Of a DNA stretch of 34,461 nucleotides, positions 4,396 through 19,968 are shown piece by piece; positions within the stretch are counted from its first letter, which is position 1; the number at the start of each line of letters is the position of its first letter. Made by a program: the position numbers and the translations under genes. This stretch comes from an uncultured Smithella sp. (GTDB taxonomy: Bacteria > Desulfobacterota > Syntrophia > Syntrophales > Smithellaceae): NCBI GenBank assembly GCA_964351355.1, contig CAYGNV010000003.1, positions 1 through 34,461 on the forward strand. The letters run 5' to 3'. The notes under the pieces were generated by a model, which did no database searches, was not told the origin of the DNA, and saw only the letters and a list, made by a program, of their open reading frames with translations.

Positions 4396-4412
4396 ATGTC
4401 AATGAAATAATG
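4396..4412 (+). repeat. Left copy of the 17-nt direct repeat ATGTCAATGAAATAATG bracketing the defence island
   Basis: 16/17 identical to 17834..17850 in the same orientation. Its complement contains TTGACAT in a -35-like position upstream of the SDR gene. Part of it is locally duplicated: ATGAAATAATGA occurs at 4402-4413 and again at 4416-4427. Confidence 0.6.
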
Positions 4413-4544: not shown

Positions 4545-6620
4545 TCATATCCTTAGATCATCAAGAAACTCAGATGGCGAGTCGCCGCAGGTGATCAGCA
4601 ATTGATCGCGGGCGCGGGTGCAGGCGACATAGAGCAGGTGCCGCTCTGTGTTATAGACTTCTTCCAGATCGGCATCATCGCCCGCCGTTTCGATGCGCCC
4701 TTGCAGTGGGATCACTTCATCGTCACAGGCCATCACGCAAACAGCCCGGAACTCAAGCCCCTTGGCCAGATGCATCGTGCTGATAGATACTTGTCCGCTG
4801 GCTGTTTCGACTGTATCGTCGAGAATCCGATAGGCAACTTGCGATTTTTCCAGTGCCGCTTTCGCTCGCGGCAGTTGAGTATCCGAGCGGACAAACACAC
4901 CGATTTCATACGGTCGTGTGCCCTCACTGATTCTATCTGAGAGCCATTTTGCGACCGCATCTATTTCCTTCTCCTGCGAGTCGCAAACCAGAATCGCCGG
5001 TTTCGGGCCGTTAAAAACGGAAACAATACCGCGACGCTCTTCCTTGTTGCCGTCCACATCCATTATTTCTTTGCCTAAAAGTCTGTCGGCCTGCATCCGG
5101 ATTTGATGGGATGTCCGATAATTAATCCTAAGTGTCCGGGAACGTCCTCGAATATCGACACCCAGCGCCTTCCAGGAAAAAGGCTGCTGGAAAATCCGCT
5201 GCCCAAGATCACCGGCAAAGAAAAGGCTGTTTGGACGACCGGAACCCAAGGCGGCAAGAAACCGCAGTTGAGAAATGCTGATATCCTGCGCCTCGTCCAC
5301 CACAATATAATTAAAAGACAGTTTTTTGCTTTTGGTAAAATGATCCGCCAGACGGGTGAAGATGTCCGCATAGGTCAAAAGATTACCGGCTTGAAGCTTT
5401 GCGCGGACTTTTTCAAATATTAACCAGAGAATGACACGCTGCTTTTCCGGTAGCCGTGATTTTCGTCCCAGGCGACGGGCATCGCGGTATTCTTCCCAAG
5501 AATTCAGTTGCCAGGCATCCACCACATCTTTCCATTCCGTAATTAAGAAAGACAGCGGGAATTTATGACCGGAAACATCGTTTGAGGCTTCTTTCATGAT
5601 CTTGGCAATTTCCGCATCGGATGCAATGCGTGTCCGGCCATAGTTTGCTTCATAAAGCCTCAATCCAATCTCATTGAGGGCTACGCATTCCAGGCGTTCA
5701 CCTATTCGAGGCGCATTGCTGATCAGGCGTCTCATCCTCAAACGCAGAGCATTGGCCAGAGTATCTGAAAAAGTGGTTAAGAGCACACGGGCATCGGGAT
5801 TTGACCGCGCAAGAAACACGGCCCGATGAAGAGCGACGATGGTCTTGCCTGTGCCTGCCGAACCGGACACGCGCGCCGGGCCGCTATAATCTTTTTCCAC
5901 CATTTGCCGTTGCGCCGGATGGAGAAAAACAATCCATTTTTCCCAGGGGTATTCGAAGGCGCATTCCAGTTCTTCAATGTTGTGCATCGTGCGAAAACGG
6001 CGCTCGGCATCGGGATGTTTGAACGGGTCAGAACCAACGGCAGCAGGCGGCATGATTTGCGGCAGCGTTCCGGTGGCCAGACACAACAGAGCTTCCGCCG
6101 CTTCGCCAGGCAGATGGTCGGCCAATTCCAGAACTGTATCTTCGTTGGCTTTGCGCACATCATCAAGCCATTCAGGCGGCACACCGTATTTCAGCAGTTC
6201 CAAATCGGAATAATTGGCAAATAAAGGTTTCTTCTCTGAAACTGTCGACTTTGGAGCTTCGGCGTATGATGGGATGATCACTTCTTTGACGGTTTCCCGA
6301 ATCTCAACCAATTGCGCCGCTCCGGTCTGCGGGTGCGTTTCCAGCTTCCGACATTCGGCCCATTGATAAGCATGGTCATGATGAGCGACATAACATAAAA
6401 GCAGGCTGCTTTCCGTTTTATGCACAATCAAACGCAAATCGCTGCTGACACGGACAGACCAGAAGCGTTTGTCTTTTGCCTTTTCCAGTTTGTGAAACTT
6501 CATCCCCGGACTGGCCGGGTTTACTTGAAGATCAAAGGCAGTCGTTTTGACCGCTTTCTGCTCTTCGTTTGCCAGTTTGGATAAACTGTCGGTAAATGTA
6601 TCGGCAATAAGGAAGTTCAT
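4545..6620 (-). CDS. UvrD/Rep-type SF1 helicase with an N-terminal RelE/ParE-like toxin-fold domain
   Basis: 691 aa. Helicase motifs: GSAGTGKT (Walker A), VVDEAQD (II), GDLGQRIF (III), NYRTSHQI (IV), TMHLAKGLEF (V/VI) and YVACTRARD. The N-terminal ~95 aa (GMKFHKLEKAKDKRFWSVRVSSDLRLIVHKTESSLLLCYVAHHDHAY) resemble the RelE/ParE consensus. The start ATG overlaps the upstream S8 stop by 1 nt (TAATG at 6620). Confidence 0.85.
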   Translation of the reverse strand: MNFLIADTFTDSLSKLANEEQKAVKTTAFDLQVNPASPGMKFHKLEKAKDKRFWSVRVSSDLRLIVHKTESSLLLCYVAHHDHAYQWAECRKLETHPQTGAAQLVEIRETVKEVIIPSYAEAPKSTVSEKKPLFANYSDLELLKYGVPPEWLDDVRKANEDTVLELADHLPGEAAEALLCLATGTLPQIMPPAAVGSDPFKHPDAERRFRTMHNIEELECAFEYPWEKWIVFLHPAQRQMVEKDYSGPARVSGSAGTGKTIVALHRAVFLARSNPDARVLLTTFSDTLANALRLRMRRLISNAPRIGERLECVALNEIGLRLYEANYGRTRIASDAEIAKIMKEASNDVSGHKFPLSFLITEWKDVVDAWQLNSWEEYRDARRLGRKSRLPEKQRVILWLIFEKVRAKLQAGNLLTYADIFTRLADHFTKSKKLSFNYIVVDEAQDISISQLRFLAALGSGRPNSLFFAGDLGQRIFQQPFSWKALGVDIRGRSRTLRINYRTSHQIRMQADRLLGKEIMDVDGNKEERRGIVSVFNGPKPAILVCDSQEKEIDAVAKWLSDRISEGTRPYEIGVFVRSDTQLPRAKAALEKSQVAYRILDDTVETASGQVSISTMHLAKGLEFRAVCVMACDDEVIPLQGRIETAGDDADLEEVYNTERHLLYVACTRARDQLLITCGDSPSEFLDDLRI

Positions 6621-9127
6621 TAAACCTCCACAAGTACCGGAATAGAAATCATATTGGCTATAATCGTATAAAGATCTACGTCAACCCCTGGCGCGCGAAT
6701 CGAGATAATCAAAGAGTAACGTGCTGCTTTGTTGTAACCTTCTAAACGTTTTCGTGTCTTCCACCAGCCGAGTGCCGGATAGACTGCCACAACACCACGA
6801 CTGGCAAGATCAACCGCACTGCCCTTCCAAATATCTGAATGGATCGATCCTTTATGACGATTTTGTTTTCCAATTATCCAGTTTAAATCATCCCCGCCGG
6901 TACGCGTACCCTCTTCCTCATTGCGTGCTGCCGCATTGATTCTTGCACGAAAATCATCTTCTGATTCATGTTGGCGTTTGACATCAAAACGTAACCCATG
7001 AGACTCATAGCGATATCTTGAACGAACACCCCTCGCTGAAGGATTGGGCTCTATAAAATAAGATAATGTTACACGCATCTCGACCTGCGCTTCGCCAAGC
7101 GCTTCAAGTTCTGCCAACGGCCAAGGAAGTTGATGCAGATTCATATCTCTCATAGTTGGCTCTTTGCCGTCTTCACGCTGGAACGGATGTAAGGAGGATT
7201 CAACAACCATTGTAAGTGAGTTCGATACGCTCCAAATAGCGCGTTCTAAACTTGGAACACCCATGCCGCAGTGACGAACAAGCTGCGCATAATCAGTCTT
7301 TAATGGTGTGGAATTAGTTGGCAGAAACATTTTTCGCATGTCATCTGTCCATTCCGCAGAGTGCACTATCAAACCGCGTATAGTTTCTGGCCATTGTTCC
7401 GGATATGCTGCCATTAATTGAGCTGCCATGCGGGCGGCAAGAGCCATTGCTGCGCTTGTGGCATTAGTGGTTGTAAATAACCGTACATGCGGCATATGGT
7501 AAGTTGATAGAAGACTTAAACTGGACGTCCTTACTGCACTTGAATTATCTTTTGCGGCGTTGCCACCTTCGCATAATACATCTGGTTTCAATGGCCAATG
7601 TGGTTCCCATATAGTTGATGTTGAGCTGAATGGGCTTAGACCACCTTCTCGCGCAATTGCCTCATATGCGATTGTGTCCGGTTCGGTAATATTGGTAAGA
7701 TTAGTATAGGCCCCCACAGTTAAAGCATTCCATGCTTGCGCAGGGTCATGAATTCCATCCGTACTGTTGCTATTTGGATATTCCATCCATGCATTAGAAT
7801 CATCAACATTGCCAGCTGATACAACCATCAGTCGAGGTGTTTTTCCATAACCTTCTGCATCCACAGCCAGACTGTCAAGAGCAGCTGACCATGCCGAGGG
7901 ACGGCCACGATCTCTGCCATCCCTGGCGGTCACTGCCATACCGAACACACGTTGTCGGTATGGATCGGTTATTTCCGGACGTGCAACCGCTTCGATAGTC
8001 AAATAACCATGATGTTTAGAATCGCCGATATTACTACCATCAAAGGGCAACAATTTAACAGACTCCAGGCGATGTCTTATATCAATGAAATCTCTTGAAA
8101 TAAGCACATCCGTCAAATCCCCCCAAATAGCAAGACCTGCCATAGCAGTTCCGTGTCCGGCAACATCATTAGTTCCCCATGCAGGCTCTACAGTATGCAA
8201 ATCGGCATCGTTTAGAACAGGTGCAAGCAATGGGTTGCCATTATTGATTCCGGTATCTAAAAGGCAGACATAAGGCACTTGTTCGCCAGCCCCAGGAAAT
8301 TGACAACGGCCCTGTAATTCGTTCATCCAGGCGGTTTGCTCTTCGGTAGGTAATTCATCAAATAAATCAGCCGTTTCTTTTGCACGCCTGAGTTCAGCGA
8401 TACTATTTAGCACCATCATGGACCGTTTTATAGCGAACGCTGAAGTGTAAATAAGCAATATTGTCCGCTCTGGAAAATCAAGGCGACCTGGCGCAACATG
8501 GATACCGTGCGCCTCAGCCAATCTACAAAAATTCCCAACTGTAGCAGAACGGTCACTGCGCACTGGAAGCCATGCCTCCCACCAGAAAACTTCATCATCG
8601 TTTATAGGAAAAACTTCTGTATTATCTGTCCAGAGCGCTTTGAGCGTGGCAGTACGAATACTTTGAATAGTATTGATAAGCGCTTTATTATCGCGTGATC
8701 GACCTTGGGCATCTTTTTTTTCTTGAATATAGGAGGTAATTTTCTTTTCAAAATTTGTCAGTTTTCCGTCCGGCACAAAAACCGTAGCGAAGGTACGGCC
8801 TTCTTCAAAGCGTACATTCAATAACTCGATGCCTGAATTTTCCAGCGATAGGCTTTCGAAAGCTAACGTAATATCTGGAAAACTTTCAAATTCCACAGGT
8901 AAACCAAAACCATCTTCAAATCCAGCAATCTTTTGGATATTGCGGGCACTTTCAAATTCAGGCTTTAAAGAATTGATTTGCTCCAGCAAATTATTGCCAT
9001 GCTGCAGACGATCTCTTTCCTGAATTGTTGGTTTCTCAATTCTTAGTCGTGGCGTGACAAATCGTTCAGTTATGGTATAGCCTTGCAGTATAAAGTGTTT
9101 TTGCTTATTATCGGTTTGGTCGGGCAT
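6620..9127 (-). CDS. S8 (subtilisin-like) serine peptidase, IetS-like
   Basis: 835 aa with an ordered catalytic triad context: CLLDTGIN (Asp), AGHGTAMAG (His) and NATSAAMALA (Ser). There are large unassigned N-terminal (~280 aa) and C-terminal regions. RBS AAGGAG is upstream. The gene lies 21 nt after the AAA ATPase gene. Confidence 0.85.
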   Translation of the reverse strand: MPDQTDNKQKHFILQGYTITERFVTPRLRIEKPTIQERDRLQHGNNLLEQINSLKPEFESARNIQKIAGFEDGFGLPVEFESFPDITLAFESLSLENSGIELLNVRFEEGRTFATVFVPDGKLTNFEKKITSYIQEKKDAQGRSRDNKALINTIQSIRTATLKALWTDNTEVFPINDDEVFWWEAWLPVRSDRSATVGNFCRLAEAHGIHVAPGRLDFPERTILLIYTSAFAIKRSMMVLNSIAELRRAKETADLFDELPTEEQTAWMNELQGRCQFPGAGEQVPYVCLLDTGINNGNPLLAPVLNDADLHTVEPAWGTNDVAGHGTAMAGLAIWGDLTDVLISRDFIDIRHRLESVKLLPFDGSNIGDSKHHGYLTIEAVARPEITDPYRQRVFGMAVTARDGRDRGRPSAWSAALDSLAVDAEGYGKTPRLMVVSAGNVDDSNAWMEYPNSNSTDGIHDPAQAWNALTVGAYTNLTNITEPDTIAYEAIAREGGLSPFSSTSTIWEPHWPLKPDVLCEGGNAAKDNSSAVRTSSLSLLSTYHMPHVRLFTTTNATSAAMALAARMAAQLMAAYPEQWPETIRGLIVHSAEWTDDMRKMFLPTNSTPLKTDYAQLVRHCGMGVPSLERAIWSVSNSLTMVVESSLHPFQREDGKEPTMRDMNLHQLPWPLAELEALGEAQVEMRVTLSYFIEPNPSARGVRSRYRYESHGLRFDVKRQHESEDDFRARINAAARNEEEGTRTGGDDLNWIIGKQNRHKGSIHSDIWKGSAVDLASRGVVAVYPALGWWKTRKRLEGYNKAARYSLIISIRAPGVDVDLYTIIANMISIPVLVEV

Positions 9128-9148
9128 TAATAGGGAAGCACTCCTTTT

Positions 9149-10135
9149 TTATATTTTATTCTTCAATTTACCCGCAATATTCTGCCGCTCCAAAAGTGCC
9201 TGGCGAATATCCATTTCTGTGACAGACTCACGATCCTGTATGAGTGCTTCTTTAAGTACTTCCTCGGCAACTCTGGCTATTTCCGCGTAGCTCAGGCCTG
9301 ATGCCGATTCAGATAATCGCTTCCAAGAGATACCTTTGACTGAATATTGGTGTAAGCGTGAACGTAACAATGTAGCTATTTGAACATTAGCCGGCAAAGT
9401 ATAATTGAGAACGTCATCAAATCGACGAAATAAAGCATGATCGAGAATGTCCGCATGATTGGTTGCGGCAATTATCAAGCTGTGTGACTGATCTTGTTCA
9501 ATCATTTGCAAGAAACTGTTGAGCACACGACGAATCTCTCCCACATCATTAGTCAGGCCACGCTGTGAACCAATCGCATCGAATTCATCGAAAAAGTAAA
9601 TGCCACGTGTTTGTCCTGTTGCATCAAAAATCTGGCGCAATTTGGCTGCGGTTTCACCCATGAACTTAGTGATTAATCCATCTAATCGTACTTGAAATAA
9701 GGGAATGCCCAGTTCACCGGCAAGCACTGAGGCAGTAAGAGTCTTCCCTGTGCCAGGAGGTCCCATTAGCAGAAGTTTGCGACGAGGTGAAAGGCCATGT
9801 GCCAATATACGGGTAGCGTGCTTTTGCTCTCTGATAATACGTTGAATCTGTTGCTCCAATGACGCATCCAGCACCATATCGTTTAAGCGTGACTTGGGAT
9901 ATGAAACAGACAACAAATTGGCTAATTCACCACGCGGACGACTGATTGGTGTTGGTTGTCCGACCCCTTGACGTCGTTTGGCATCGTCGATCAGAAAGCG
10001 CAATTCTTCGGCTAATTTCCCATGTCCCAACTTGGCTTCCTGTGCAGCGACTTGCATGGCAACCGAAAAGAATCTTTGATCATCGCCCTCTATGTGCGAT
10101 TTAAGCATTGCTTTTAACTGATCAGCACTTGCCAT
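9149..10135 (-). CDS. AAA+ ATPase (classic AAA clade), IetA-like
   Basis: 328 aa. Motifs: Walker A GPPGTGKT, Walker B IYFFDEFD, sensor-1 IIAATN and Arg-finger region FRRFD. RBS AAGGAGG is upstream. The gene lies 27 nt after the mod stop. Confidence 0.85.
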   Translation of the reverse strand: MASADQLKAMLKSHIEGDDQRFFSVAMQVAAQEAKLGHGKLAEELRFLIDDAKRRQGVGQPTPISRPRGELANLLSVSYPKSRLNDMVLDASLEQQIQRIIREQKHATRILAHGLSPRRKLLLMGPPGTGKTLTASVLAGELGIPLFQVRLDGLITKFMGETAAKLRQIFDATGQTRGIYFFDEFDAIGSQRGLTNDVGEIRRVLNSFLQMIEQDQSHSLIIAATNHADILDHALFRRFDDVLNYTLPANVQIATLLRSRLHQYSVKGISWKRLSESASGLSYAEIARVAEEVLKEALIQDRESVTEMDIRQALLERQNIAGKLKNKI

Positions 10136-10162
10136 AACTATACCTCCTTGTTTGTTGCCCTA

Positions 10163-13100
10163 TTATACCCTAAACACCTTCATGACTTCATCACCTAAAT
10201 GATTGATGACTTTTACGGCGATGCGGCCGGATTTGGGTTTGTCGAAGGGTCGGGAAATGTCGCTGTTTAATGTTGCCCAGGCTTCTTCGTTGACCTCAGC
10301 CTTCAAGGTGGTCTTCAATGCTTTGTACGGGTCGTTTGCGCCCAGGAAATAGGCTTGGCGGACGAAGAAGCTTTCTTCGTTGTAGTCCGTGTCGATAAAC
10401 CAGCAGGCAATGCCATCGGCCCCGTCGCTGCGGACTTCGCCGGTGTTGGGGTGGAAGACATCAACGCCGTTAATTTTTACTTGAACCTGCCCACTCTCAG
10501 CATCCAGAACATCAATATCCGGTTCGCCGAAGATGATAAACAGGTTGCCTTTGCCGGTGTTCTTCAGATCGTCGGCCATATGCAGGTCGGCATTCATGCG
10601 GGCTTTGAGGACGGGGATGCGGCCCAGTTTGTTGAACTCCGAGGAATGGGCGTCGTAATTAAAGGCGCAGGTGATAAGCACGTCAAAGTCGGCATCGCCT
10701 GCCTCGCGGGCGGCGGCAACCAGATCGGGGCGGGAGACGGTTCCGAATTCAGGGCCGATGAAGATTGCGGCGCGTTTCTCGACGCCTGCCCCCGCAGCTT
10801 CACCCTCACCCTTACCCTCTCCCATCGAGGGAGAGGGAATCTTTTTTGAACCTTCCAGGTAGCGGCCTTCGGCGCAGATATAGTGTCCTGGCCACGGGGT
10901 TAATGATGTGAAGTTGATTTTATCATCCTTGTGAGCTTGCTGGACACCGGCAATTTTGAGGTTTTCCAAAATGATCTGCGTGAAGTCGCGCACCGCGCCA
11001 TAGTCGGCTAACGCTGAATCCGCGATGCCGTCGATTAATTCATCATTTTCATCAACTGTCAGAACGCGGTGAGGCAAAAGGCTCTCCACGGTGAATGGCC
11101 CGGCGACGCGGACTTTCTTTTTGTCGTCGTAAGGCTTGTCATAAAGATATTCAACGTCCGCCTTGGCGGCAATGGAGGCGTCGATTTCCTTTTGACGCTC
11201 GATGCGATATTGCCACCACTGGGCATGCAATGCTTCTGCTTCTTTCGTCACCCCGGCGAACGCCGGGGTCCAGTTGTCTTTTTCAGTTTTCTGGTTACCG
11301 GCACTCGTGCCATTCAGGGTATTCGCCGGTATGACGTCTGAGAAAGAGCGGGGGATTTCCCATTCTTCCCATGCCCTTTTTTCTCCCTCTCCCCTCGTGG
11401 GACGCGTGCCCTCCAGGGTAGAGGGTTGGGGTGAGGGGGCAACGCGCCCCAGAGCCTGATTTAGCTGTTTGCGGATGGGTTCCATCTTTTCCTGCCACTT
11501 TTCCCAGATGACATCGATCTCCGCATTGTTGGCAATGGACTTCAGTGTAATATGTGGCACGCGCTCATAGATAAAACCCTGACGGATGTCGCCGCGTATG
11601 GGCGCTGTTGATGGCTCTTTGCGGCTTATTTCGGCTTCCTTGATTTGACCGTCACGGCTATCGGCTAATAGATAATAAGGATAGCGTGCGCCCATGATGC
11701 GAGCACGGGCCAGGGCAAGCGCCACGCGGGACGTGTCGATGGTGATCCAGCGGCGTCCCCATTGCTCGGAAACGTATGTGGTCGTGCCTGAGCCACAGGT
11801 AGGATCGAGGACAAGATCGCCGGGGTCAGTGGACATTAGAATGCAGCGTTCAACTAGTTTCGGTGACGTCTGCACAACGTATGTGCGATCAGACAAAAAA
11901 CTATGTACGCAGTCCTGCCAGATGTTGTTTACAGGTCTTGCCGCAAAATCCTGGATGAAAGATTGAAACCACAAGTTATTGCCCTGTTTGACGACACGCC
12001 CAGCGTTAATGACCCGACGCATTCCTTCTTCACTAGTACGCCAGACTCGTCGGCCCGGACGATGTTCCATGCCCGCGAAGGCAATGGGATAACGTGTTGT
12101 ATCAACGCCTGAGGCGGAAGTAAGGTCTTGCAGGGACATGACACGACCACCTTTTTTTAAAAGCTCCGCAATATCATCGTCTGACGTGATTCGCCTTCTC
12201 GTCCCTTCTTGAAAGATCCAAACATATTGAGATGCACCATCTTCTCCGAATTCTTTAGGAAGATAAGGTTGGCGATACTTAAGTTTCTCAACATCTTTTG
12301 CGAACCAAAGAACAACGTCATAGACACTGGCTACCGAACTGGTATGCCCCGAAATACTGCTTGCCCCCGTAGTCTTCTGGAAAATAATGTCTGACACATG
12401 ATTTCTGTCCCCAAACACTTCATCCATCAACGCCCTTACGCGGTGGACGTTCTCATCCCCAATCTGGACAAAGATCGAACCACTTTCCGTCAATAAATCC
12501 CGTGCCACGGTCAGGCGGTCGCGCAGATACGTCAGATAGGAATGAATTCCATCGCGCCAGGTATCACGGAAAGCTTTGACCTGCTCCGGCTCGCGGGTGA
12601 TGTGGTCAGTGTTCCCATCTTTAACATCGCGGCTGGTGGTGGACCACTGGAAGTTGGAGTTGAACTTGATGCCGTAAGGCGGGTCGAAATAAATGCACTG
12701 CACCTTGCCGCGCAGACCTTCGCGCTCGGTCAGGCTGGCCATGACTTGGAGGCTGTCGCCCAGGATCATGCGGTTGGTCCAGTTGGCGTCGTGCTGGTAG
12801 AACTCGGTTTTGGCGGCTTCGGTCGGGATGCCGTTAAAATCGGCAAAAAGATCGTTTTGATAACCGGCCGTTTGCGAATTACTACTGGCCGTTTGTCGCA
12901 GCAGGTCGTCAATCAGCACTTTCGGATGGACTTTTTCCTGAATATAAATAGGCGGCGCGTTCACCACCAGGTCAGACCAGTCCTGCTCATCCTTACCGCG
13001 CCAGACCAGTTGCGGATCGAGATCGCGGTTGCGGTTTGCTTTTTCTTCTTCGTGCCCGGCAGCGCCACGCGGCAGGGTTACGGACAGTGTGTCTTGCGCT

Positions 13101-13207
13101 TCCTTTTGCAGCACGGATTGAAACTCGGCGGTGGGAATGTTTTTTCGCTTGGCTTCATCGTGCGTTAGCGTTTCGATTGTTTTATTATTTGTCTTTTTTT
13201 GTTTCAC
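10163..13207 (-). CDS. mod: Type III restriction-modification DNA methyltransferase (Mod), beta-class amino-methyltransferase
   Basis: 1014-aa ORF with a GTG start. Motif IV IYFDPPYG (aa 172-179) precedes motif I VLDPTCGSGTT. That order is typical of Type III Mod. The N-terminal NRDLDPQLVWRGKDEQDWSDLVV block is as in Mod proteins that partner with this Res family. The gene contains two inserted palindromic elements, listed as separate features. Confidence 0.85.
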   Translation of the reverse strand: MKQKKTNNKTIETLTHDEAKRKNIPTAEFQSVLQKEAQDTLSVTLPRGAAGHEEEKANRNRDLDPQLVWRGKDEQDWSDLVVNAPPIYIQEKVHPKVLIDDLLRQTASSNSQTAGYQNDLFADFNGIPTEAAKTEFYQHDANWTNRMILGDSLQVMASLTEREGLRGKVQCIYFDPPYGIKFNSNFQWSTTSRDVKDGNTDHITREPEQVKAFRDTWRDGIHSYLTYLRDRLTVARDLLTESGSIFVQIGDENVHRVRALMDEVFGDRNHVSDIIFQKTTGASSISGHTSSVASVYDVVLWFAKDVEKLKYRQPYLPKEFGEDGASQYVWIFQEGTRRRITSDDDIAELLKKGGRVMSLQDLTSASGVDTTRYPIAFAGMEHRPGRRVWRTSEEGMRRVINAGRVVKQGNNLWFQSFIQDFAARPVNNIWQDCVHSFLSDRTYVVQTSPKLVERCILMSTDPGDLVLDPTCGSGTTTYVSEQWGRRWITIDTSRVALALARARIMGARYPYYLLADSRDGQIKEAEISRKEPSTAPIRGDIRQGFIYERVPHITLKSIANNAEIDVIWEKWQEKMEPIRKQLNQALGRVAPSPQPSTLEGTRPTRGEGEKRAWEEWEIPRSFSDVIPANTLNGTSAGNQKTEKDNWTPAFAGVTKEAEALHAQWWQYRIERQKEIDASIAAKADVEYLYDKPYDDKKKVRVAGPFTVESLLPHRVLTVDENDELIDGIADSALADYGAVRDFTQIILENLKIAGVQQAHKDDKINFTSLTPWPGHYICAEGRYLEGSKKIPSPSMGEGKGEGEAAGAGVEKRAAIFIGPEFGTVSRPDLVAAAREAGDADFDVLITCAFNYDAHSSEFNKLGRIPVLKARMNADLHMADDLKNTGKGNLFIIFGEPDIDVLDAESGQVQVKINGVDVFHPNTGEVRSDGADGIACWFIDTDYNEESFFVRQAYFLGANDPYKALKTTLKAEVNEEAWATLNSDISRPFDKPKSGRIAVKVINHLGDEVMKVFRV
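10803..10837 (+). repeat. GC-rich palindromic element, copy 1, in-frame inside mod
   Basis: The plus strand reads CCCTCACCC-TTA-CCCTCTCCC-ATCGA-GGGAGAGGG, a perfect 9-bp stem with a 5-nt loop. In the mod frame it encodes ...PSPSMGEGKGEGE... Confidence 0.75.
11385..11437 (-). repeat. GC-rich palindromic element, copy 2, in-frame inside mod and inverted relative to copy 1
   Basis: The minus strand reads CCCTCACCC-CAA-CCCTCTACCC-(21 nt containing ACGCGT)-GGGGAGAGGG. It has the same module order as copy 1 but lies on the other strand. In the mod frame it encodes ...PSPQPSTLEGTRPTRGEGE... Confidence 0.75.
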
Positions 13208-13256
13208 GTTCCAACCCTTTCATCCTTACGCTTCACCATCCACCATCTACTATTCA

Positions 13257-14612
13257 CTATTCAATCACTTCCCAATGTCCGCCTTTGGCCGGGCCGACGC
13301 GCCGCAAACAGCCGATTCTTTGAAGCGTTTGAATATTACGCTCAATGGTCCGCTCTGTCACCTCAATGAGCGCTGATAATTCCGGAATCGTGATTCGCTG
13401 ATTCCGGCGGATTTCATCCAATATTTTCCCCGACGTTTTCCCCGACGTTTTCCCCGACATTTTCCCCGGCGTTTTCTCCGAAATCACACCAACTTTATCA
13501 GTGATGCCCTTTTGCAATCCTTTCCTCCGGAATCGCGCCACAAACAGCATTGAGCCTACCTCTTCGAACTCCGTCGCCGGCTCCTTCGCTAAAATCAGCT
13601 TGATGCCGCGGCCCCATTTCTCAATCAGATGCCGGCGCTGGAAGAGATCCGCCAGAAGTTCATTGCGCCGCATCGAAACCATCTTTTCCCGGATATCGGA
13701 AATGGTCAGTCCGCCATAAAGCAGGCCGGGGTTGCGAATTTCCAGACGATCCTTAAAGACAGCAATGTTAACCGAATCGTATTCGCGGTAATCCCGATGA
13801 CAAAAAGCATTGATGATGGCCTCGCGAAAGGCTTCCCGGTCAATCTCGGGAACATCCACACGCAACAGACCTTCCACACGCATACCGATATTGATATGCT
13901 CCAGAATATACTCTTCGGCCTTCTCGATGAGCGTAAAGACATCGCCCGTGATGTCTTTCATGTCCAGCGTAACGGTTGTGTCTGCTGTTCCAAACGTGGC
14001 GCAACGCAATTTGGCATTGGCAAAGAATTTCTCGGGGCTTTTGCCAAAACAGATAACGGCCGCGTTTCGTATCTTATGTTTCTTGATCAGGTTGAGTTTG
14101 TCGAGGGCGTTTTGAAGAGTATCGTATTTGAGCCCGCAGGATTTCAGAAACCGTTTCAGTTTAGCGCTGCTGATATCATCCGGTGTTGCCTGGGGGCAGA
14201 TTTCCGTATCCCAGCGCAGGCGGTCACGGTTTTTTTCCAGGATGAAATTTTCCAGTTCCTTGGCGCTTAACTGCCGGTCCTCATCACCCACCCGGCTGTA
14301 AGCCCGTCCATAGGCGTAATAAGGCGTTTCTTTACCTTCCACCTGCACCCGGATGCAAGGCTTGCCATCCATTGTCACTTTTTCAACGGAAGGATAAATC
14401 TTGGGTTCGATATGATCGCCGATTGTCCGGGAGACTTCCCTCAAACTGGCCTCGGAGATATTCTGACCAACGGCGGTTCCATCATTCTTGATCCCAAACC
14501 ACAACTCGCCGCGCTGATGCTTATTGAGCATGGCTGACAGAGAAACAATGCCCGCCTTCAATTCACTGGTGGATTTCTTCAGTTCTAAAGTTTCCGATTC
14601 AATCAATTGCAT
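13257..14612 (-). CDS. AlbA_2/Schlafen-like domain plus HATPase_c_4-like domain plus C-terminal winged-HTH protein (putative ATP-binding regulator/sensor)
   Basis: The track ORF extends to a TTG at 14693, overlapping the res stop. I prefer the ATG at 14612 (MQLIESETLELKKS...). N-terminus: ESETLELKKS...GELWFGIKNDGTAVG (AlbA_2-like). Middle: INAFCHRDYREYDSVNIAVFKDRLEIRNPG. C-terminus: RITIPELSALIEVTERTIERNIQTLQRIGCLRRVG (wHTH). Confidence 0.75.
   Translation of the reverse strand: MQLIESETLELKKSTSELKAGIVSLSAMLNKHQRGELWFGIKNDGTAVGQNISEASLREVSRTIGDHIEPKIYPSVEKVTMDGKPCIRVQVEGKETPYYAYGRAYSRVGDEDRQLSAKELENFILEKNRDRLRWDTEICPQATPDDISSAKLKRFLKSCGLKYDTLQNALDKLNLIKKHKIRNAAVICFGKSPEKFFANAKLRCATFGTADTTVTLDMKDITGDVFTLIEKAEEYILEHINIGMRVEGLLRVDVPEIDREAFREAIINAFCHRDYREYDSVNIAVFKDRLEIRNPGLLYGGLTISDIREKMVSMRRNELLADLFQRRHLIEKWGRGIKLILAKEPATEFEEVGSMLFVARFRRKGLQKGITDKVGVISEKTPGKMSGKTSGKTSGKILDEIRRNQRITIPELSALIEVTERTIERNIQTLQRIGCLRRVGPAKGGHWEVIE
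13424..13483 (-). repeat. 12-bp tandem repeat (TTTTCCCCGACG x5, the last two copies degenerate) inside the AlbA_2 gene
   Basis: Units lie at 13424, 13436, 13448, 13460 and 13472. On the coding strand they encode the linker ...KTPGKMSGKTSGKTSGK... between the HATPase-like domain and the wHTH. Confidence 0.85.
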
Positions 14613-14673
14613 TTCTTCCCTTTTATGGGTTCCCGCCAAAAGCCTGCGGGAAGGTATATGATTTTTCCCTTCT

Positions 14674-17600
14674 TCATCTGATAGCCTTCTCAATCATCTT
14701 GTTGAACTCTTCTTCTACCTTGGCTTTAAAATCAGATTCAATTTGATAGACTTCCGTCAATTCGGCAAAGGCCCAGCGGCCATATTGCCCGTTGTTGTTG
14801 ACGCCGGGAATCCAGTAGTTTTCCATGGTCGATTTCTTTTCCTTGGCGTCCTCGCGGCGATAGCCTTTGATTTCCACGATCTGGTTCAGAAGGTCTTTCT
14901 CGCCGTGGCCATCATCCACCCGAACGATAAAGTCGGGAAGATAGAGGCGCTTTTGCGAACCGAAATTATAAGGCACTTCCAATCCAAGGCTGTGATTTTT
15001 GACATAGGATTTTACCTGCGGATGCGATTCCGCCACGCGGCAGAATTCGGCCTCCCAGTCGCTGTCCAGAATCACCCAGTTGACTTGACAGCGCCGTGCA
15101 TCCGTTTCCCAGCGGTCGGTTCTGGAGGTGTTGAAGTTTACATGCATGGTGGAGCCGGTCGGGTTATAGCTATCCAGCACGGCGACAATGGGGTTCTTTC
15201 CTTCCAGTGAACGGGTGATGCCATCCGTGATACGATTGCAAGCCATATCGGCAAGGTCCTGATACATGAGCTGGGCGGGATAGGCGCCGCCTTTGCAAAT
15301 CAGACAATGGTCAAGCCAATCCTTGGTAATACGTTTCAACTGACCGAATAAATGATACTTGGGATCTTCACCCGTGTCGCGCCATTTGCTCTCCAGCAGT
15401 CGTTTGGTGAGATGAAACAAAAGCGTGGAGCGGCGAAGATCACCGGTATGGACAAGGGTTAAGTCAACCATCTCGCCAATGATGCCTTGATTTCTGGTAT
15501 TGGTCGGCCCGACAAGATCGGGCGTCAAATCCAGAACCGAATCAGCGTTAAATTCGGCGGTCAGCTTTTCCTGCGGCAGATCGACGCGATAGCCCGCCAC
15601 GCGGGGAAAGCGGATTTCCAGATGATCGCGCTCCGGACGCACAGCCTTGACCCGGATGGTTTCGCGGGGCGGTTGCGGCGGAGCGATGACCGGTTTGGCG
15701 GTAAAGTCAAACGGTATGCCCAGCACGTCGGCATATTCGACATTGAACAGGCCATCATCATTAAGATCATACGATTGTCGGCGCAGGGCGCGGCCAATGA
15801 CCTGTTCACATAAAAGCTGGGTGCCGAAAGCGCGGACACCCAAAACATGCGTGACCGTATTGGCGTCCCAACCTTCCGTGAGCATGGATACGGATACGAC
15901 ACAGCGGATGGACTCGCCAAGTCTATCTTTCTTGCCGACGGTGTTCATGACTTCCCGAAGCAAATCCTGATCGGTGAGGTTCTCTGCCTGGCTGCGGTCT
16001 CCGGTGCGTTCAATGATTTCCCGACGAAAGCGTTCGATTTCCAAGCTTGCCATCGCGCGGAAATTATCGTCAAGGGCATCGCCGGATTCCAGTTGTTCAC
16101 TGTCGATCAGCAATGTGCGCGGTCTGGCCAGAGGATTGCCGTATTCATCAAAGTTTGAAAACAAGGCAAATTTACCTAAAAACGGCGGCGGTGCAACACC
16201 ATCAGCACGAACGGGATGTTCAAAGCCGGACATGTAATCGTAAACCAGCTTGGAGGTGGATGTATTGTTGCAGACGACAATAAAGCAGGGCGGCAATTTC
16301 ATGCCGTTTTCCTGCCACAGGTTGTATGTCTTTTCATAATGGCCATAGAGCGCTTCCAATGCGGTCTGAAGCCGGGTGGGAAGTTTAAGAGGATCAAGCG
16401 CCGCGCTTTTGCCCCGGCCTTTCTTCGGCATATCCTTGCGGATATGCTCCCAGAGGTTGCGAAACATCGGCATTTCCATACCGGGGATATTGTCCGCAAC
16501 TGGAACACGCGGCAATTTGACGATGCCGCATTCAATGGCGTCCATTAAAGAAAAGTCGCACATTGTCCATGGAAACAGGGTGCCTTCGGCATAACCGGAA
16601 CCCCGCAAGAAAAAAGGCGTGGCGGATAAATCGATGACTTGTGTCAGGCCAATTTTGCGGTTGATCATTTCAAGACCGGTTATCCAGAGTCGCGCCGCTT
16701 CATTATTCTTTTCTGCTTCTTTTCGATCATCGCCTTTGAGCTCTTCTTCATCATCCTGTTCGGGTTTTTCCCGGTAGCAATGGTGCGCTTCGTCGTTCAT
16801 TGCCAGAATGTTTTTCATGCCCATCAGTTCCGGCATGACGCGCTGAATCATCTGCCCTTCGGTTTCGAGCGTTTTGAGTTCTTCACCGCCTCTGCCCTGA
16901 AGCAGCGATCGCCCGCCCCTGGACAGCTCCATGCGGTCACGCAATTTGAAGGCGTGATAATTGGTGACAACAATCTTGGCCCGCTCCAGATCGCGCATCA
17001 TATCGCCGGGCACAAGCTCGCGGCTCCGATAGTAGCTGTCCGGATCGTTGGGTTGGAGAACACGCAGCCGGTCTTTGATGGTTATGCCGGGGGTAACGAC
17101 CAGAAAACCACGTGTAAATTTTTTGCTGTTGGGACGGCGCACGGCATTAACGGTCTGCCAGATGATCAGCATGGCCATAACCGTGGTCTTGCCTGTTCCG
17201 GTGGCAAGTTTGAGCGCCAGACGCATCAGGTTGGGATTGGCGTCATTATTGGCATTGGCCAGATGTTCAAGAAAAGCTTTTCCTGCTTTTTCACCGGGAG
17301 CAACCTCGGTCAGCCAGATGGCCGTCTCCACGGCTTCGATCTGACAATAGAAAGGGCGGAGAGTGTTAAACTGGTGATGTCGCCAATGCTTAAGCAATCG
17401 GGCGGTTTCCGGCGTTACTTTCCAGTCATTGGGATTAGAAAAACTGCGCCACTTGTCCACGTGATAACGCAGGTCATTAATGACGGGTGTGGGATCGTAC
17501 CGTTGTTTCTGCGTGGATAAGCCTTTTCCCTCGTCAAATACTATGTTTGACTGGACTGTTGCTGTTTTACGTTTTTTGGGCTTGGGAATCGGCGTAATAA

Positions 17601-17727
17601 ACTCGGCACGGCGACGCTTTTCGATGATCTGTTGCGTTGGCTGGCCCTGCGCATCGAGTTCCCAATGACGCTGGGGATATTCATAGGGGGAATTTAGTAT
17701 GGGTTTTTCAAAAAAGAGATTTTCCAT
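14674..17727 (-). CDS. res: Type III restriction endonuclease Res subunit (SF2 DEAH helicase plus C-terminal PD-(D/E)xK nuclease)
   Basis: The track ORF opens with GTG at 17733. I prefer the ATG at 17727 (MENLFFEKPILNSPYEYP...), which is preceded by GAAGGTGA. Motifs: LATGTGKT, MNDEAHH, MLTEGWDA, QVIGRALRR, and YLPDF...IVEIKG near the C-terminus. Confidence 0.9.
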   Translation of the reverse strand: MENLFFEKPILNSPYEYPQRHWELDAQGQPTQQIIEKRRRAEFITPIPKPKKRKTATVQSNIVFDEGKGLSTQKQRYDPTPVINDLRYHVDKWRSFSNPNDWKVTPETARLLKHWRHHQFNTLRPFYCQIEAVETAIWLTEVAPGEKAGKAFLEHLANANNDANPNLMRLALKLATGTGKTTVMAMLIIWQTVNAVRRPNSKKFTRGFLVVTPGITIKDRLRVLQPNDPDSYYRSRELVPGDMMRDLERAKIVVTNYHAFKLRDRMELSRGGRSLLQGRGGEELKTLETEGQMIQRVMPELMGMKNILAMNDEAHHCYREKPEQDDEEELKGDDRKEAEKNNEAARLWITGLEMINRKIGLTQVIDLSATPFFLRGSGYAEGTLFPWTMCDFSLMDAIECGIVKLPRVPVADNIPGMEMPMFRNLWEHIRKDMPKKGRGKSAALDPLKLPTRLQTALEALYGHYEKTYNLWQENGMKLPPCFIVVCNNTSTSKLVYDYMSGFEHPVRADGVAPPPFLGKFALFSNFDEYGNPLARPRTLLIDSEQLESGDALDDNFRAMASLEIERFRREIIERTGDRSQAENLTDQDLLREVMNTVGKKDRLGESIRCVVSVSMLTEGWDANTVTHVLGVRAFGTQLLCEQVIGRALRRQSYDLNDDGLFNVEYADVLGIPFDFTAKPVIAPPQPPRETIRVKAVRPERDHLEIRFPRVAGYRVDLPQEKLTAEFNADSVLDLTPDLVGPTNTRNQGIIGEMVDLTLVHTGDLRRSTLLFHLTKRLLESKWRDTGEDPKYHLFGQLKRITKDWLDHCLICKGGAYPAQLMYQDLADMACNRITDGITRSLEGKNPIVAVLDSYNPTGSTMHVNFNTSRTDRWETDARRCQVNWVILDSDWEAEFCRVAESHPQVKSYVKNHSLGLEVPYNFGSQKRLYLPDFIVRVDDGHGEKDLLNQIVEIKGYRREDAKEKKSTMENYWIPGVNNNGQYGRWAFAELTEVYQIESDFKAKVEEEFNKMIEKAIR

Positions 17728-17811
17728 GTTCACTTCTTCACCTTCAGCTTTGCGGCAGATCCTGATAGCGGCAGTCCAAAATTTGATGAGAATTTACTTA
17801 TGACGGCACGG

Positions 17812-17840
17812 AGTATAAGAAGAACGAACGCGCATGTCAA
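17812..17840 (-). promoter_or_regulatory. Near-consensus sigma-70 promoter for the res-led operon
   Basis: The minus strand reads TTGACA (17840-17835), a 17-nt spacer (TGCGCGTTCGTTCTTCT), then TATACT (17817-17812). It lies about 85 nt upstream of the res ATG. The -35 lies inside the right copy of the 17-nt repeat. Confidence 0.6.
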
Positions 17841-17850
17841 TGAAATTATG
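17834..17850 (+). repeat. Right copy of the 17-nt direct repeat (ATGTCAATGAAATTATG) bracketing the defence island
   Basis: 16/17 identical to 4396..4412 in the same orientation. Confidence 0.6.
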
Positions 17851-17883
17851 GCCGCAAAAGATGAGACGTTGTGTCGATGTTTG

Positions 17884-18245
17884 TCATTGGAGATGAATTG
17901 CAGCTATTAGGGATTTAAGCAGCTTTCCGCAATCTTTCCAGCCGACTACTTTTATTTCTTTTTGCCTGTATGAATCATCTCCACCATAGATCAATGCCTT
18001 GGCGGTGTTATGGGTAATGCCGCATTCTGTGGCCAAAGAGGAAAGGTTGAGCAACTGGCCGGTTCGCCCGCGCACAGTCTCGCAAAACGCTGGAAGGTTT
18101 CCAGTTCATGAATCTTGAGCATCTGCCGGACGTCGCGTTCAACATAGGCCGTGACATAGACGGCAAACCAGTTTGCCGGGTCCAGCGCACGGTCATAAAT
18201 CGGCGGATAACATCCGGTCAGAAGCATGGCGTCAATATCGGCCTG
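17884..18245 (-). pseudogene. Decayed DUF4143-type AAA ATPase gene (N-terminally truncated, frameshifted, internally deleted)
   Basis: Two minus-strand frames together read ...LLTGCYPPIYDRALDPANWFAVYVTAYVERDVRQMLKIHELETFQRFARLCAG / (R)TGQLLNLSSLATECGITHNTAKA / LIYGGDDSYRQKEIKVVGW. The frame change near 18065-18070 fits a 1-nt loss (GGC CGA to GGCGA). The AAA domain and the middle ~150 aa expected in this family are missing. Confidence 0.6.
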
Positions 18246-18533
18246 ATGGTCCAGATGCTGGCCGGTTTGATTACCTATATCCTCCTGGCATCTATTGCCA
18301 CTGTAAAAAAAGCTTACAGAAAAGTGTATATATTTATTACATGACTCCAAACATCTAACCTGCCTAAATTGCTTCAGTAAATTACTGCAAAGAATTATAT
18401 CATTTTTTTGTGTTAATAAAATTAACATGGACATATTTTGGCGTTAAAAATCAGAACTTTTTTTGCTATAAATTAATGCAGTAATTACAAATAGATATCT
18501 AAACATATCACAATAATTTTAAAATAATATTTT

Positions 18534-18549
18534 TGGCATGCCTATTGTA
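18534..18549 (+). promoter_or_regulatory. Candidate sigma-54 (-24/-12) promoter upstream of the MFS transporter
   Basis: TGGCATGcctaTTGTA versus the consensus TGGCACG-N4-TTGCW. It matches at 14/16 positions with correct GG / TTG spacing. The -12 is GT instead of GC. It lies 82 nt upstream of the ATG at 18631, and an NtrC-type activator is encoded nearby. Confidence 0.35.
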
Positions 18550-18630
18550 TTAGTATGTTTGCAAGTAATTAATTGAATCAGGTTTATGTGCAAAAAGCAC
18601 AACCAAAAATAAGGTCTGAAGGAGGAATGT

Positions 18631-19968
18631 ATGTCGGAAGAAATTAAGAACAAAGGCTGGACGGTTGCTTCTGCCGGAACGGGAATTAATCTTGCGCTTG
18701 GAATTCTCTATGCATGGAGCATTTTTAAGGGCGCGATAGAAAAGTCTATTAACGCAGGCGGAGAAGGCGCATTTAACTGGGATCTTGCAAAACTGAACGA
18801 TCCCTATTCGGTGTGCTGTCTTGCTTTTGCATTTTCCATGATTCTTGCCGGAAAGTGTCAGGATAAATTCGGCCCCAGAGTCACCGCATTTCTCGGCGGC
18901 ATTATGGTAGGATTGGGACTTCTGTTGATTTCTCAGACCTCAAGCTATATCTACTGGGTCCTCGGGTTTGGTTTAATGGTTGGCACAGGAATCGGCTTTG
19001 GCTATTCTTCGGCCACGCCACCGGCTCTCAAGTGGTTTCCGGCCGCGAAAACAGGCCTGATCGCTGGTCTTGTTGTTGCCGGCTTTGGTCTTGCTTCAGT
19101 CTGGAGCGCGCCGTTGGCAGAATATTTATTGAAGGCATACGGCATCCACCAGGCCATGATGATATTTGGCGGTTTATTTGTGGTTGTGGTGTGCGGACTC
19201 TCCCTGTTTTTGGTCAACCCTCCCGCAGGTTATGTGCCCGGCGGTGCAGCAGCTCAATTGGCGGCAGCCTCCGCCCCGAAAAATGATGCCCCTCCCTCCG
19301 TCATGATGAAATCAGACTATTTCTGGACGCTCTGGATCATTTATTTTATCGCAGCAGGCGTTGGCCTGATGATTATTGGAAGCGTCAGCGGCATGGCCAA
19401 GAAGAGCATGGGAGATTCAGCCTTCATAGCGGTTGTGATTCTTGCCATCGGCAATGCCGCCGGCCGCATTGTGGCCGGTATTGTATCGGATAAAATCGGT
19501 CGCAAAACCACGCTAGTGGGCGTTCTGCTCCTTCAGGCGGCTTTAATGATTGCAGCCATTTCCCTCGTTGGTTCCGCAACAACCAGCGCTCTGTGGATTG
19601 TTCTTTTGGCAACATTTATCGGCTTTAACTACGGCGCAAACCTGTCGCTGTTTCCGGCATTAACCAAAGATCGTTGGGGTTTGAAATCCTTTGGCATGAA
19701 CTATGGCATTCTGTTTACGGCATGGGGCATTGGCGGTTTTGTCATGAGCAGAATGCAGCAGATGCTGACCGCGTCAACCGGCAGCTTCACCTCGTCGTTC
19801 ATCATTGCCACGATTCTACTCATCCTCGCTACCGTGGTTACCCTCACGCTCAAAACGGCCGAGCCGGTTGCAGTTCCAGTTCCAGAAGGCGCTATCTTCC
19901 AGCCACAGCTTGGTTTAACCATGGCGGACGGTGGTGAAAAAATAGAAGAAGACGATAAGAAGAAATAA
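18631..19968 (+). CDS. MFS transporter (oxalate/formate antiporter-like family)
   Basis: 445 aa and highly hydrophobic, with about 12 predicted TM segments. The layout is typical of MFS/OFA-like transporters (GKCQDKFGPR loop after TM2, SDKIGRK loop in the second half). A strong RBS GAAGGAGG is upstream. Confidence 0.8.
   Translation: MSEEIKNKGWTVASAGTGINLALGILYAWSIFKGAIEKSINAGGEGAFNWDLAKLNDPYSVCCLAFAFSMILAGKCQDKFGPRVTAFLGGIMVGLGLLLISQTSSYIYWVLGFGLMVGTGIGFGYSSATPPALKWFPAAKTGLIAGLVVAGFGLASVWSAPLAEYLLKAYGIHQAMMIFGGLFVVVVCGLSLFLVNPPAGYVPGGAAAQLAAASAPKNDAPPSVMMKSDYFWTLWIIYFIAAGVGLMIIGSVSGMAKKSMGDSAFIAVVILAIGNAAGRIVAGIVSDKIGRKTTLVGVLLLQAALMIAAISLVGSATTSALWIVLLATFIGFNYGANLSLFPALTKDRWGLKSFGMNYGILFTAWGIGGFVMSRMQQMLTASTGSFTSSFIIATILLILATVVTLTLKTAEPVAVPVPEGAIFQPQLGLTMADGGEKIEEDDKKK

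Follow-up and report, generated by a model that had tools for sequence, protein, structure and literature searches.

A Smithella defence operon in which a Type III-like restriction scaffold probably carries two slots for exchangeable defence genes

The DNA of interest is a 34,461-nucleotide (nt) stretch (hereafter, the window) of contig CAYGNV010000003.1, from assembly GCA_964351355.1 of an uncultured Smithella sp. Positions 4545–17840 of the window hold a block of six defence-type genes on the minus strand. We conclude with fair confidence that this block is one mobile defence operon, consisting of a conserved res-mod-helicase scaffold with two slots that exchange self-contained defence genes. 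The scaffold comprises (i) a BPTD_3080-family, Type III-like Res protein that combines a superfamily 2 (SF2) motor with a PD..ExK nuclease, (ii) a methyltransferase of ~1000 amino acids (aa) with a hypervariable target-recognition region, and (iii) a helicase in which a RelE/YoeB-fold domain is fused to a UvrD/GajB-like superfamily 1 (SF1) motor—the same arrangement as in ArmD of ARMADA type II. Slot 1 lies between res and mod, and slot 2 between mod and the helicase gene; the self-contained genes that they are proposed to exchange are, in the window, an AlbA_2-HATPase_c_4-wHTH (winged helix-turn-helix) gene in slot 1 and the pair ietA-ietS in slot 2. In the order in which they would be transcribed, the six genes are:

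14674–17727, minus strand: res, core gene 1, encoding a BPTD_3080-family Type III-like restriction subunit (1017 aa).
13257–14612, minus strand: AlbA_2 (Schlafen-like)/HATPase_c_4/wHTH gene, the slot-1 cargo (451 aa).
10163–13207, minus strand: mod, core gene 2, encoding a Type III-like beta-class amino-methyltransferase (1014 aa; GTG start).
9149–10135, minus strand: ietA, slot-2 cargo gene 1, encoding an AAA+ ATPase (328 aa).
6620–9127, minus strand: ietS, slot-2 cargo gene 2, encoding an S8 subtilase (835 aa).
4545–6620, minus strand: core gene 3, encoding an ArmD-like UvrD-type helicase (691 aa).

All six open reading frames (ORFs) were confirmed from an ORF list and by reading the sequence, and the domain assignments were checked with Pfam, PADLOC, and NCBIfam. 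The gene calls of the source contig give equal lengths for the five genes from res through ietS (that locus stops short of the helicase gene). For res, an ATG start at position 17727 yields the 1017-aa protein, while the ORF list uses a GTG at 17733. Read off the sequence from res to the helicase gene, the spacers measure 61, 49, 27, 21, and -1 nt. The last junctions are coupled: Shine-Dalgarno sequences precede ietA (AAGGAGG), ietS (AAGGAG), and the helicase gene (GGAGG), and the stop codon of ietS overlaps the start codon of the helicase gene in the sequence TAATG. An earlier note on this DNA had described six tightly packed, same-strand genes of defence type, and these are present with the spacers that it gave. 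Its wider picture, in which several defence systems are packed tightly behind a single promoter, is also supported; the promoter is conserved, and the operon is a genuine one, compact and with layered defences.

The way in which the locus divides into parts is different from that first proposed. The earlier note had read the block as a restriction-modification (R-M) module with at least two accessory modules, listing Type III R-M, Schlafen-like, ATPase-protease, and helicase parts. Relatives of Mod occur in at least 598 species from many phyla, and the best 80 loci were analysed. Among these, res lies upstream of mod on the same strand in every evaluable case (57/57), and a full-length helicase homolog (58–89% identity) lies downstream of mod on the same strand in 42 of 60 loci (~70%). 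A reciprocal search of metagenome contigs, starting from the helicase, found a mod gene of this family upstream in all 34 evaluable loci. The pairwise identities of Res and helicase rise and fall together (r=0.85; 54 loci); the corresponding correlations for Mod are lower (0.50–0.57), as expected if the recognition domain is swapped. Finally, the bare triad is found on RefSeq plasmids, where its genes form an overlapping operon with gaps of 1 and -1 nt. Cultured carriers of the family include Pseudomonas avellanae NCPPB 4222 (bare triad, on plasmid p1), Gemmobacter fulvus con5 (p6; each slot occupied by small genes), Ramlibacter ginsenosidimutans KCTC 22276 (a NOV_C gene in slot 2), and Luteimonas padinae KCTC 52403. 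Taken together, the 34/34 linkage, the co-variation with Res, and the bare-triad plasmids indicate that the helicase is a core partner of Res-Mod rather than an appended module; where slot 2 is empty, its gene begins 2–20 nt after mod. The earlier division therefore falls with respect to the helicase. It stands for the AlbA_2 gene and the ATPase-protease pair, with the difference that both are embedded in the two slots of the core rather than stacked beside it. Two features that had been called less usual, namely the position of res before mod and the length of Mod at ~1000 aa, are both the rule in this family.

The slots were surveyed in 145 related loci plus the window, with denominators that count evaluable loci. 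Both slots are either closed or wide open: the res-mod spacer measures either ~20–120 nt or 0.6–4 kb, and the mod-helicase spacer either 2–20 nt or 0.7–5.6 kb. Slot 1 is filled in 64 of 110 loci and slot 2 in 70 of 90, while both are empty in 12 of 79. Most cargo ORFs (184/209) lie on the operon strand, and slot-2 cargo fits closely between its neighbours, starting 8–60 nt past the mod stop codon and ending at the helicase start codon. The slot-1 cargo of relatives includes SoFic, ORF6N, DUF1828, Bro-N, HTH-M78, NYN, and DUF4062-HATPase_c_4 proteins. Slot 2 holds HEC-01A-type ABC ATPases, AAA_21 with DUF4276, SIR2 with HerA, HamA with HamB (Hachiman), HEPN, NOV_C, GmrSD_N, AAA_13, and IetAS. 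About half of the cargo families seen carry no annotation.

Cargo is both specific to its slot and quick to change. Across the loci surveyed, SoFic and HATPase_c_4 proteins were found in slot 1 only, and IetAS and SIR2-HerA in slot 2 only. Behind helicases at least 81% identical to that of the window, slot 2 holds at least 10 different gene sets, indicating that cargo turns over much faster than the scaffold does. In the slot-1 gene of the window, the AlbA_2, HATPase_c_4, and wHTH domains were assigned with Pfam; its slot-1 relatives share only the HATPase_c_4 core and have DUF4062 at the N-terminus. The AlbA_2 N-terminus was seen only in the window. The cargo genes are thus nested, co-oriented, and variable, and they include known defence systems (IetAS, SIR2-HerA, Hachiman, and SoFic), as embedded defence genes do.

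Res and Mod resemble the subunits of classical Type III R-M systems (EcoP15I, EcoP1I) in domain content and depart from them in several other respects. In Type III systems, cleavage depends on ATP and on unmethylated sites in inverse orientation, and the host is protected by hemimethylation. Res matches the NCBIfam equivalog model NF046055 (BPTD_3080 family restriction endonuclease) at 1376.1 bits against a cutoff of 800, over profile positions 1–969 of 970. Its Pfam matches are ResIII (E 3.6e-9) and, at 19.8 bits and under the 23.4 threshold, RE_endonuc; the complete PADLOC list contains only three weak REase_III matches. The protein retains the motifs GTGKT177, DEAH312, and a C-terminal PDF...EIK and so is, like Type III Res, an SF2 ATPase with a C-terminal PD-(D/E)xK endonuclease. 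Unlike its classical counterparts, it is too diverged to find a sequence match among solved structures. A literature search for BPTD_3080 returned no mention of the name.

Mod matches the PADLOC model MTase_III (PDLC03632) at 1339 bits and Pfam N6_N4_Mtase over residues 169–498, and its N-terminal part matches the Mod subunit of EcoP15I (4zcf_A; E 1.9e-15). Motif IV (DPPY, at residue 175) precedes motif I, and residues 251–450, lying between blocks that are 87–95% conserved, are hypervariable, which fits a target-recognition domain. This is the arrangement of a beta-class N6-adenine/N4-cytosine methyltransferase, and it is shared with classical Type III Mod. The differences are that (i) the two-gene order mod-res does not apply, since res comes first in all 57 evaluable loci and a third gene follows in 42 of 60, (ii) Mod is ~1000 aa long, its C-terminal 500 aa forming a conserved extension, (iii) a RelE-fold helicase is linked to the pair in ~70% of loci, and (iv) the intergenic positions serve as cargo slots. 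A second hypervariable patch was observed at Mod residues 601–650 (approximately nt 11258–11407), where identity with the window's residue is only 19% over 110 homologs. This patch is outside the methyltransferase core and has conserved sequence on either side.

The helicase is made up of a RelE/YoeB-fold domain (residues 1–95; nt 6336–6620), a helical linker, and a UvrD/Rep-type SF1 core (residues ~232–691) that Pfam recognizes as UvrD-helicase plus UvrD_C; the Walker A motif of the helicase includes K259. For the N-terminal domain, only structure comparison was informative: a profile search against PDB sequences returned nothing, and Pfam gave only a sub-threshold, HigB-like match. Residues 1–95 were modelled with a predicted local distance difference test score (pLDDT) of 87, and the best Foldseek matches in the PDB are YoeB, RelE, and YafQ, and also ParE (E 3e-5, template modelling (TM) score 0.6–0.78). 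Residues R57, R63, H67, H80, H81, and Y85 are invariant in homologs, many of which carry the label "RelE" at JGI. A PADLOC match (C3a187) had raised the candidate of a NERD nuclease at the N-terminus; this was rejected because the match is confined to the helicase core and the N-terminus adopts the RelE/YoeB fold. The helicase also matches GajB models (1e-25); the window has no gene for GajA, the OLD-family ATPase-nuclease with which GajB is paired, and the locus is not Gabija.

Full-length homologs with 31–37% identity are encoded on E. coli IncY plasmids and in Thermus, including the helicase of E. coli ARMADA-II-like loci (31% identity over the full length). There, the gene comes after that of a giant DruE/YprA-like helicase and, in E. 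coli, a class I S-adenosylmethionine (SAM) methyltransferase gene also lies upstream. This context is the ARMADA type II architecture. ARMADA type II consists of ArmA-ArmB-ArmC-ArmD, in which ArmA is BrxHII-like, ArmB is a PglX-like methyltransferase, and ArmC is a YprA-like helicase; ArmD is essential, its Walker A motif is required, and defence is direct and non-abortive (PMC12458937). The window's locus shares with it a helicase of ArmD architecture (RelE/YoeB fold plus UvrD core) and a methyltransferase-linked, helicase-rich composition. Its partners are different, being a Type III-like, ResIII-type Res and an N6_N4 Mod, and neither Pfam nor the PADLOC matches listed contain DruE, YprA, PglX, or BrxH in the window. 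With ArmA, ArmB, and ArmC absent, membership of the locus in ARMADA was rejected.

Several side observations concern the surroundings of such helicases. On the E. coli IncY plasmid NZ_CP114794.1 (loci L148/L150 in our numbering of related loci), a class I SAM methyltransferase, a 2113-aa DruE/YprA-like helicase, and the RelE-fold helicase form an ARMADA-II-like set ~2.2 kb from a tyrosine recombinase gene, with two insertion sequence pseudogenes in between; this set gives the window's helicase a tractable relative in E. coli. In eight loci, small proteins (100–215 aa, without a Pfam match) are encoded directly upstream of the RelE-fold helicase. This slot-2 family (L060:7830-8477, L088:9667-9990, L092, L108, and L110-L112) could perhaps be an antitoxin-like partner of the RelE-like domain. 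Where no helicase lies within 10 kb of mod (e.g., L056 and L073), other co-oriented gene sets follow mod, such as a conserved run of genes for proteins of 387, 268, 229, and 420 aa; these sets may be alternative third components.

By its sequence, the ATPase-protease pair in slot 2 is the known stand-alone system IetAS (Gao et al. 2020). Like the published system, it consists of an adjacent AAA+ ATPase and S8 subtilase, co-oriented with a gap of 21 nt, with a Walker A motif in the former and an Asp/His/Ser triad in the latter. IetA is recognized by PADLOC at 257 bits (E 9.3e-77), with the Walker A motif GPPGTGKT at residue 125 and the DE pair at position 183 in FFDEFD. IetS is recognized at 118 bits (E 7.8e-35) and by Pfam as Peptidase_S8 (E 1e-51), and its catalytic residues D291, H325, and the serine of ATSAA are all present. 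Both proteins fall below the NCBIfam equivalog cutoffs (IteA, 210.7 versus 510; IteS, 66.8 versus 900), indicating that the pair belongs to a divergent clade. It differs from the published system further in being embedded between mod and the helicase gene rather than standing alone. Nine loci, belonging to several clades, have IetAS in slot 2, and stand-alone homologs (~52% identity to IetS) are found on plasmids.

The elements relevant to transcription of the block are:

17812–17840, minus strand: sigma-70-type promoter TTGACA-N17-TATACT, matching at 11 of 12 positions; the best site in the region.
14630–14652, minus strand: hairpin TTCCCGC-N9-GCGGGAA in the 61-nt spacer between res and slot 1, with a stem of 6–7 bp and no T-run.

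The single strong promoter that had been placed at 17840–17812 is borne out, being the sole site in 14.7 kb to match at 10 or more of 12 positions. Promoter-like sites as a whole are not above chance (15 versus 17.9 expected). Both hexamers are invariant in five loci of the Syntrophales clade (the window, L001, L084, L003, and L114), while the spacer and flanks vary, and homology among these related loci begins ~10 nt upstream of the -35 element, indicating that the mobile unit carries its own promoter. Terminator-like matches occur at chance level (19 versus 17.3) and, on the minus strand, none falls in any intergenic gap of the block; the statement that no terminator separates the genes holds. 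The hairpin at 14630–14652 does not resemble a terminator. When the 70-nt stretch around it is folded as a whole, RNAfold returns -15.4 kcal/mol. The hairpin may act in RNA processing or stabilisation, or attenuate transcription in part.

Co-transcription, which had been proposed from the tight stacking, is plausible. Indirect support comes from an Accumulibacter relative (L071) with the order res-SoFic-mod-AAA_16-helicase, for which four metatranscriptomes have contigs over all five genes. One metatranscriptome contig of 1458 nt runs from the 3' end of mod through the cargo into the helicase gene. A separate observation in the same relative is that contig depth in the four metatranscriptomes reaches 400–1445 over L071:9581-9951 (where the SoFic cargo ends, shortly before mod), as compared with ~5–70 in the rest of the operon; the peak may reflect an RNA fragment of high stability, or sequence that abundant organisms have in common with the relative.

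In the mechanism that we propose, all six genes would be transcribed from the promoter at 17840–17812. Judging from predicted activities, Mod would mark host DNA and Res would cut DNA that lacks the mark. The helicase may work with Res-Mod as an ATP-dependent partner, its substrates being the DNA ends or nicks that Res-Mod makes and, possibly, RNA via the RelE-like domain. The cargo genes would provide independent second layers of defence under the operon's regulation. A bolder version of this proposal, which we put forward tentatively and consider possible at most, is that the triad of Res, Mod, and RelE-fold helicase is an undescribed and very widespread system whose slots are functionally specialised docking sites, with cargo wired to the scaffold. 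Slot 1 would then receive DNA-binding, sensor, or modifier proteins (AlbA_2/HATPase_c_4-wHTH, SoFic, ORF6N, Bro-N, and HTH-M78) and slot 2 effectors (IetAS, SIR2-HerA, Hachiman, and ABC-ATPase nucleases). The coupling would go beyond mere co-regulation, with cargo triggered on, for example, failure of restriction.

Several results weigh against a scaffold that acts and is transcribed as one unit. No helicase was found within 10 kb in 18 of the 60 mod loci, and Res-Mod may accordingly work alone. A weak promoter-like site (13361–13333; 9/12 match) lies upstream of mod, and none of the RNA runs searched contains the window, which comes from a 2019 metagenome. The RNA contigs of L071 are assembled and strand-less and cover a different cargo, and carry-over of DNA into them is possible. 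The RelE-like domain is a putative ribonuclease by its fold and its invariant Arg, His, and Tyr residues, and the reportedly non-abortive nature of ARMADA defence argues against a simple suicide-toxin role for the domain.

Other explanations of the block were weighed against that of one scaffold with two slots. In one of them, the scaffold is true and yet several transcripts are made: cargo would bring its own internal promoters, the hairpin after res would attenuate, and embedding would be a convenience of recombination. Weak minus-strand promoter-like sites do lie inside genes (13361–13333, 13803–13776, and 9500–9471), the hairpin is in place, and RNA depth in the relative is uneven. These internal sites match at only 9 of 12 positions and occur at chance frequency, however, the spacers of 21–61 nt hold no promoter, and one RNA contig in the relative crosses two junctions; we consider this account unlikely. 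In our estimation quite unlikely is an exclusion mechanism of the BREX/ARMADA kind. The triad would then not be an R-M system that cleaves; methylation would serve to mark self, and phage replication would be blocked by the two motors, with no classical restriction involved. An ArmD-like helicase as in ARMADA II, an unusually long Mod with its conserved 500-aa C-terminal extension, and a Res without a counterpart by sequence among solved structures would all be compatible with it. Against it, Res passes the NCBIfam restriction endonuclease equivalog model and keeps its PD..ExK motif, and the core of Mod matches Type III Mods.

A further view keeps the four parts listed in the earlier note as independent systems (Type III R-M, a Schlafen-like gene, an ATPase-protease pair, and a stand-alone helicase) that merely gathered side by side in a defence island, with one promoter in common through an accident of packing. 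It accounts for six tightly packed defence-type genes behind one promoter and for the autonomy of IetAS elsewhere. It would gain support if the helicase family were commonly encoded without Res-Mod, and the opposite is observed: the helicase is linked to mod in 34 of 34 loci across phyla and co-varies with Res. Moreover, in ~100 loci the accessory genes lie between the core genes, at the same two positions, and not beside them. We therefore regard accidental accumulation as improbable. The -1 nt overlap of ietS with the helicase gene, and the presence of IetAS before the helicase gene in nine loci, could alternatively mean that the helicase is the third component of an IetAS subtype and that the TAATG overlap reflects functional coupling with the protease. 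This is very improbable, given that in at least 11 loci without IetAS the helicase gene directly follows mod (2–20 nt), that it follows many other cargos, and that the plasmid homologs of IetAS come without such a helicase.

Among known systems that host nested defence genes, the scaffold with two slots resembles Hma. Both are three-gene scaffolds of helicase, methylase, and ATPase with variable, co-oriented defence genes between core genes, and they have cargo families in common: HEC-01A (E 4e-188), NYN, HEPN, and GmrSD-like. They differ in the methylase, HmaB being a 5-methylcytosine (m5C) enzyme (Payne et al. 2021; PMC8565338) and that of the window an N6/N4 enzyme. No Hma model appears in PADLOC for Res (complete list), for Mod (best 25 of 51 matches), or for the helicase (best 25 of 48 matches). 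Membership in Hma, which had been raised by cargo that matches HEC models, was rejected on methyltransferase class and on the absence of an Hma hidden Markov model among the matches listed. PrrC and RloC in Type I R-M operons offer a second parallel, being second-line effectors nested in, and co-expressed with, an R-M operon; there, the host system is another one, a single fixed partner takes the place of two slots, and the cargo shows no turnover. Nesting of defence genes has been studied in Hma, BREX, DISARM, and Type I R-M, and Type III-like systems were not covered (Payne et al. 2024; bioRxiv 10.1101/2024.01.29.577857). Our literature search found no description of a triad of Type III-like Res-Mod with an ArmD-like helicase, or of its role as an embedding host; only ARMADA surfaced.

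The borders of the block were also examined. It is flanked by genes for a short-chain dehydrogenase/reductase (SDR) and an L-lactate major facilitator superfamily (MFS) transporter, by sigma-54 regulators, and by Hdr-like genes, and its DNA has no match in E. coli genomes. These neighbours, like the closest relatives, indicate a host of the Smithella/Syntrophaceae group. A 13-nt direct repeat, ATTTCATTGACAT, brackets 13.4 kb of sequence that includes the six genes:

17834–17846, minus strand: left copy of ATTTCATTGACAT, overlapping the -35 element of the res promoter.
4396–4408, minus strand: right copy of ATTTCATTGACAT, 137 nt past the helicase stop codon.

The repeat has exactly two copies in the window (0 expected), and the downstream copy lacks a usable -10 element. 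When 52 loci were tested for flanking direct repeats, shuffled controls were exceeded in just two, the window (13 nt) and L096 (21 nt). The pair could mark the scar of an insertion or a module end that was duplicated and has since decayed, or it could be due to chance.

Just upstream of the res promoter (17950–18299, minus strand) lies an ~80-codon fragment of an 'ATP-binding protein' gene, with 41% identity to an internal part of a gene on an Allochromatium plasmid. Stop codons and changes of frame interrupt the fragment, which is probably what remains of a gene at the edge of the island. The ORF at 17991–18434 has no family match, and it is another frame of this region that holds the fragment. 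The spacer between the island and the MFS gene is AT-rich (GC content 0.42–0.43; window 17500–19000). Contigs from three other samples (L154-L156, with an identical MFS gene) end within this spacer, at 18325, 18549, and 18581, which suggests that strains differ at this border of the island or that its assembly is faulty. An island-free SDR-MFS junction was not found: the SDR protein is without a record, and the other MFS contigs are identical to the window and end in the spacer.

Two elements of the above are already known, namely the IetAS pair and the phenomenon of embedding. New are the scaffold as identified here, the RelE-fold helicase that is coupled to it, and a cargo that is specific to its slot and turns over fast. 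The parsing of such loci is corrected accordingly: the helicase is to be counted with the R-M-like core, and the genes in the middle are guests. Type III-like R-M with an ArmD-like helicase joins the short list of embedding hosts (Hma, BREX, DISARM, and Type I R-M), and the scaffold occurs in hundreds of species from many phyla. Since about half of the cargo families are unannotated, new candidates for defence genes can readily be drawn from the two slots through guilt-by-embedding. A second, unrelated methylation-based system is now tied to the RelE-fold helicase known from ARMADA II. This suggests that the helicase is a portable partner of systems that mark self and non-self, and the three-gene scaffold offers a simpler setting in which to test its role.

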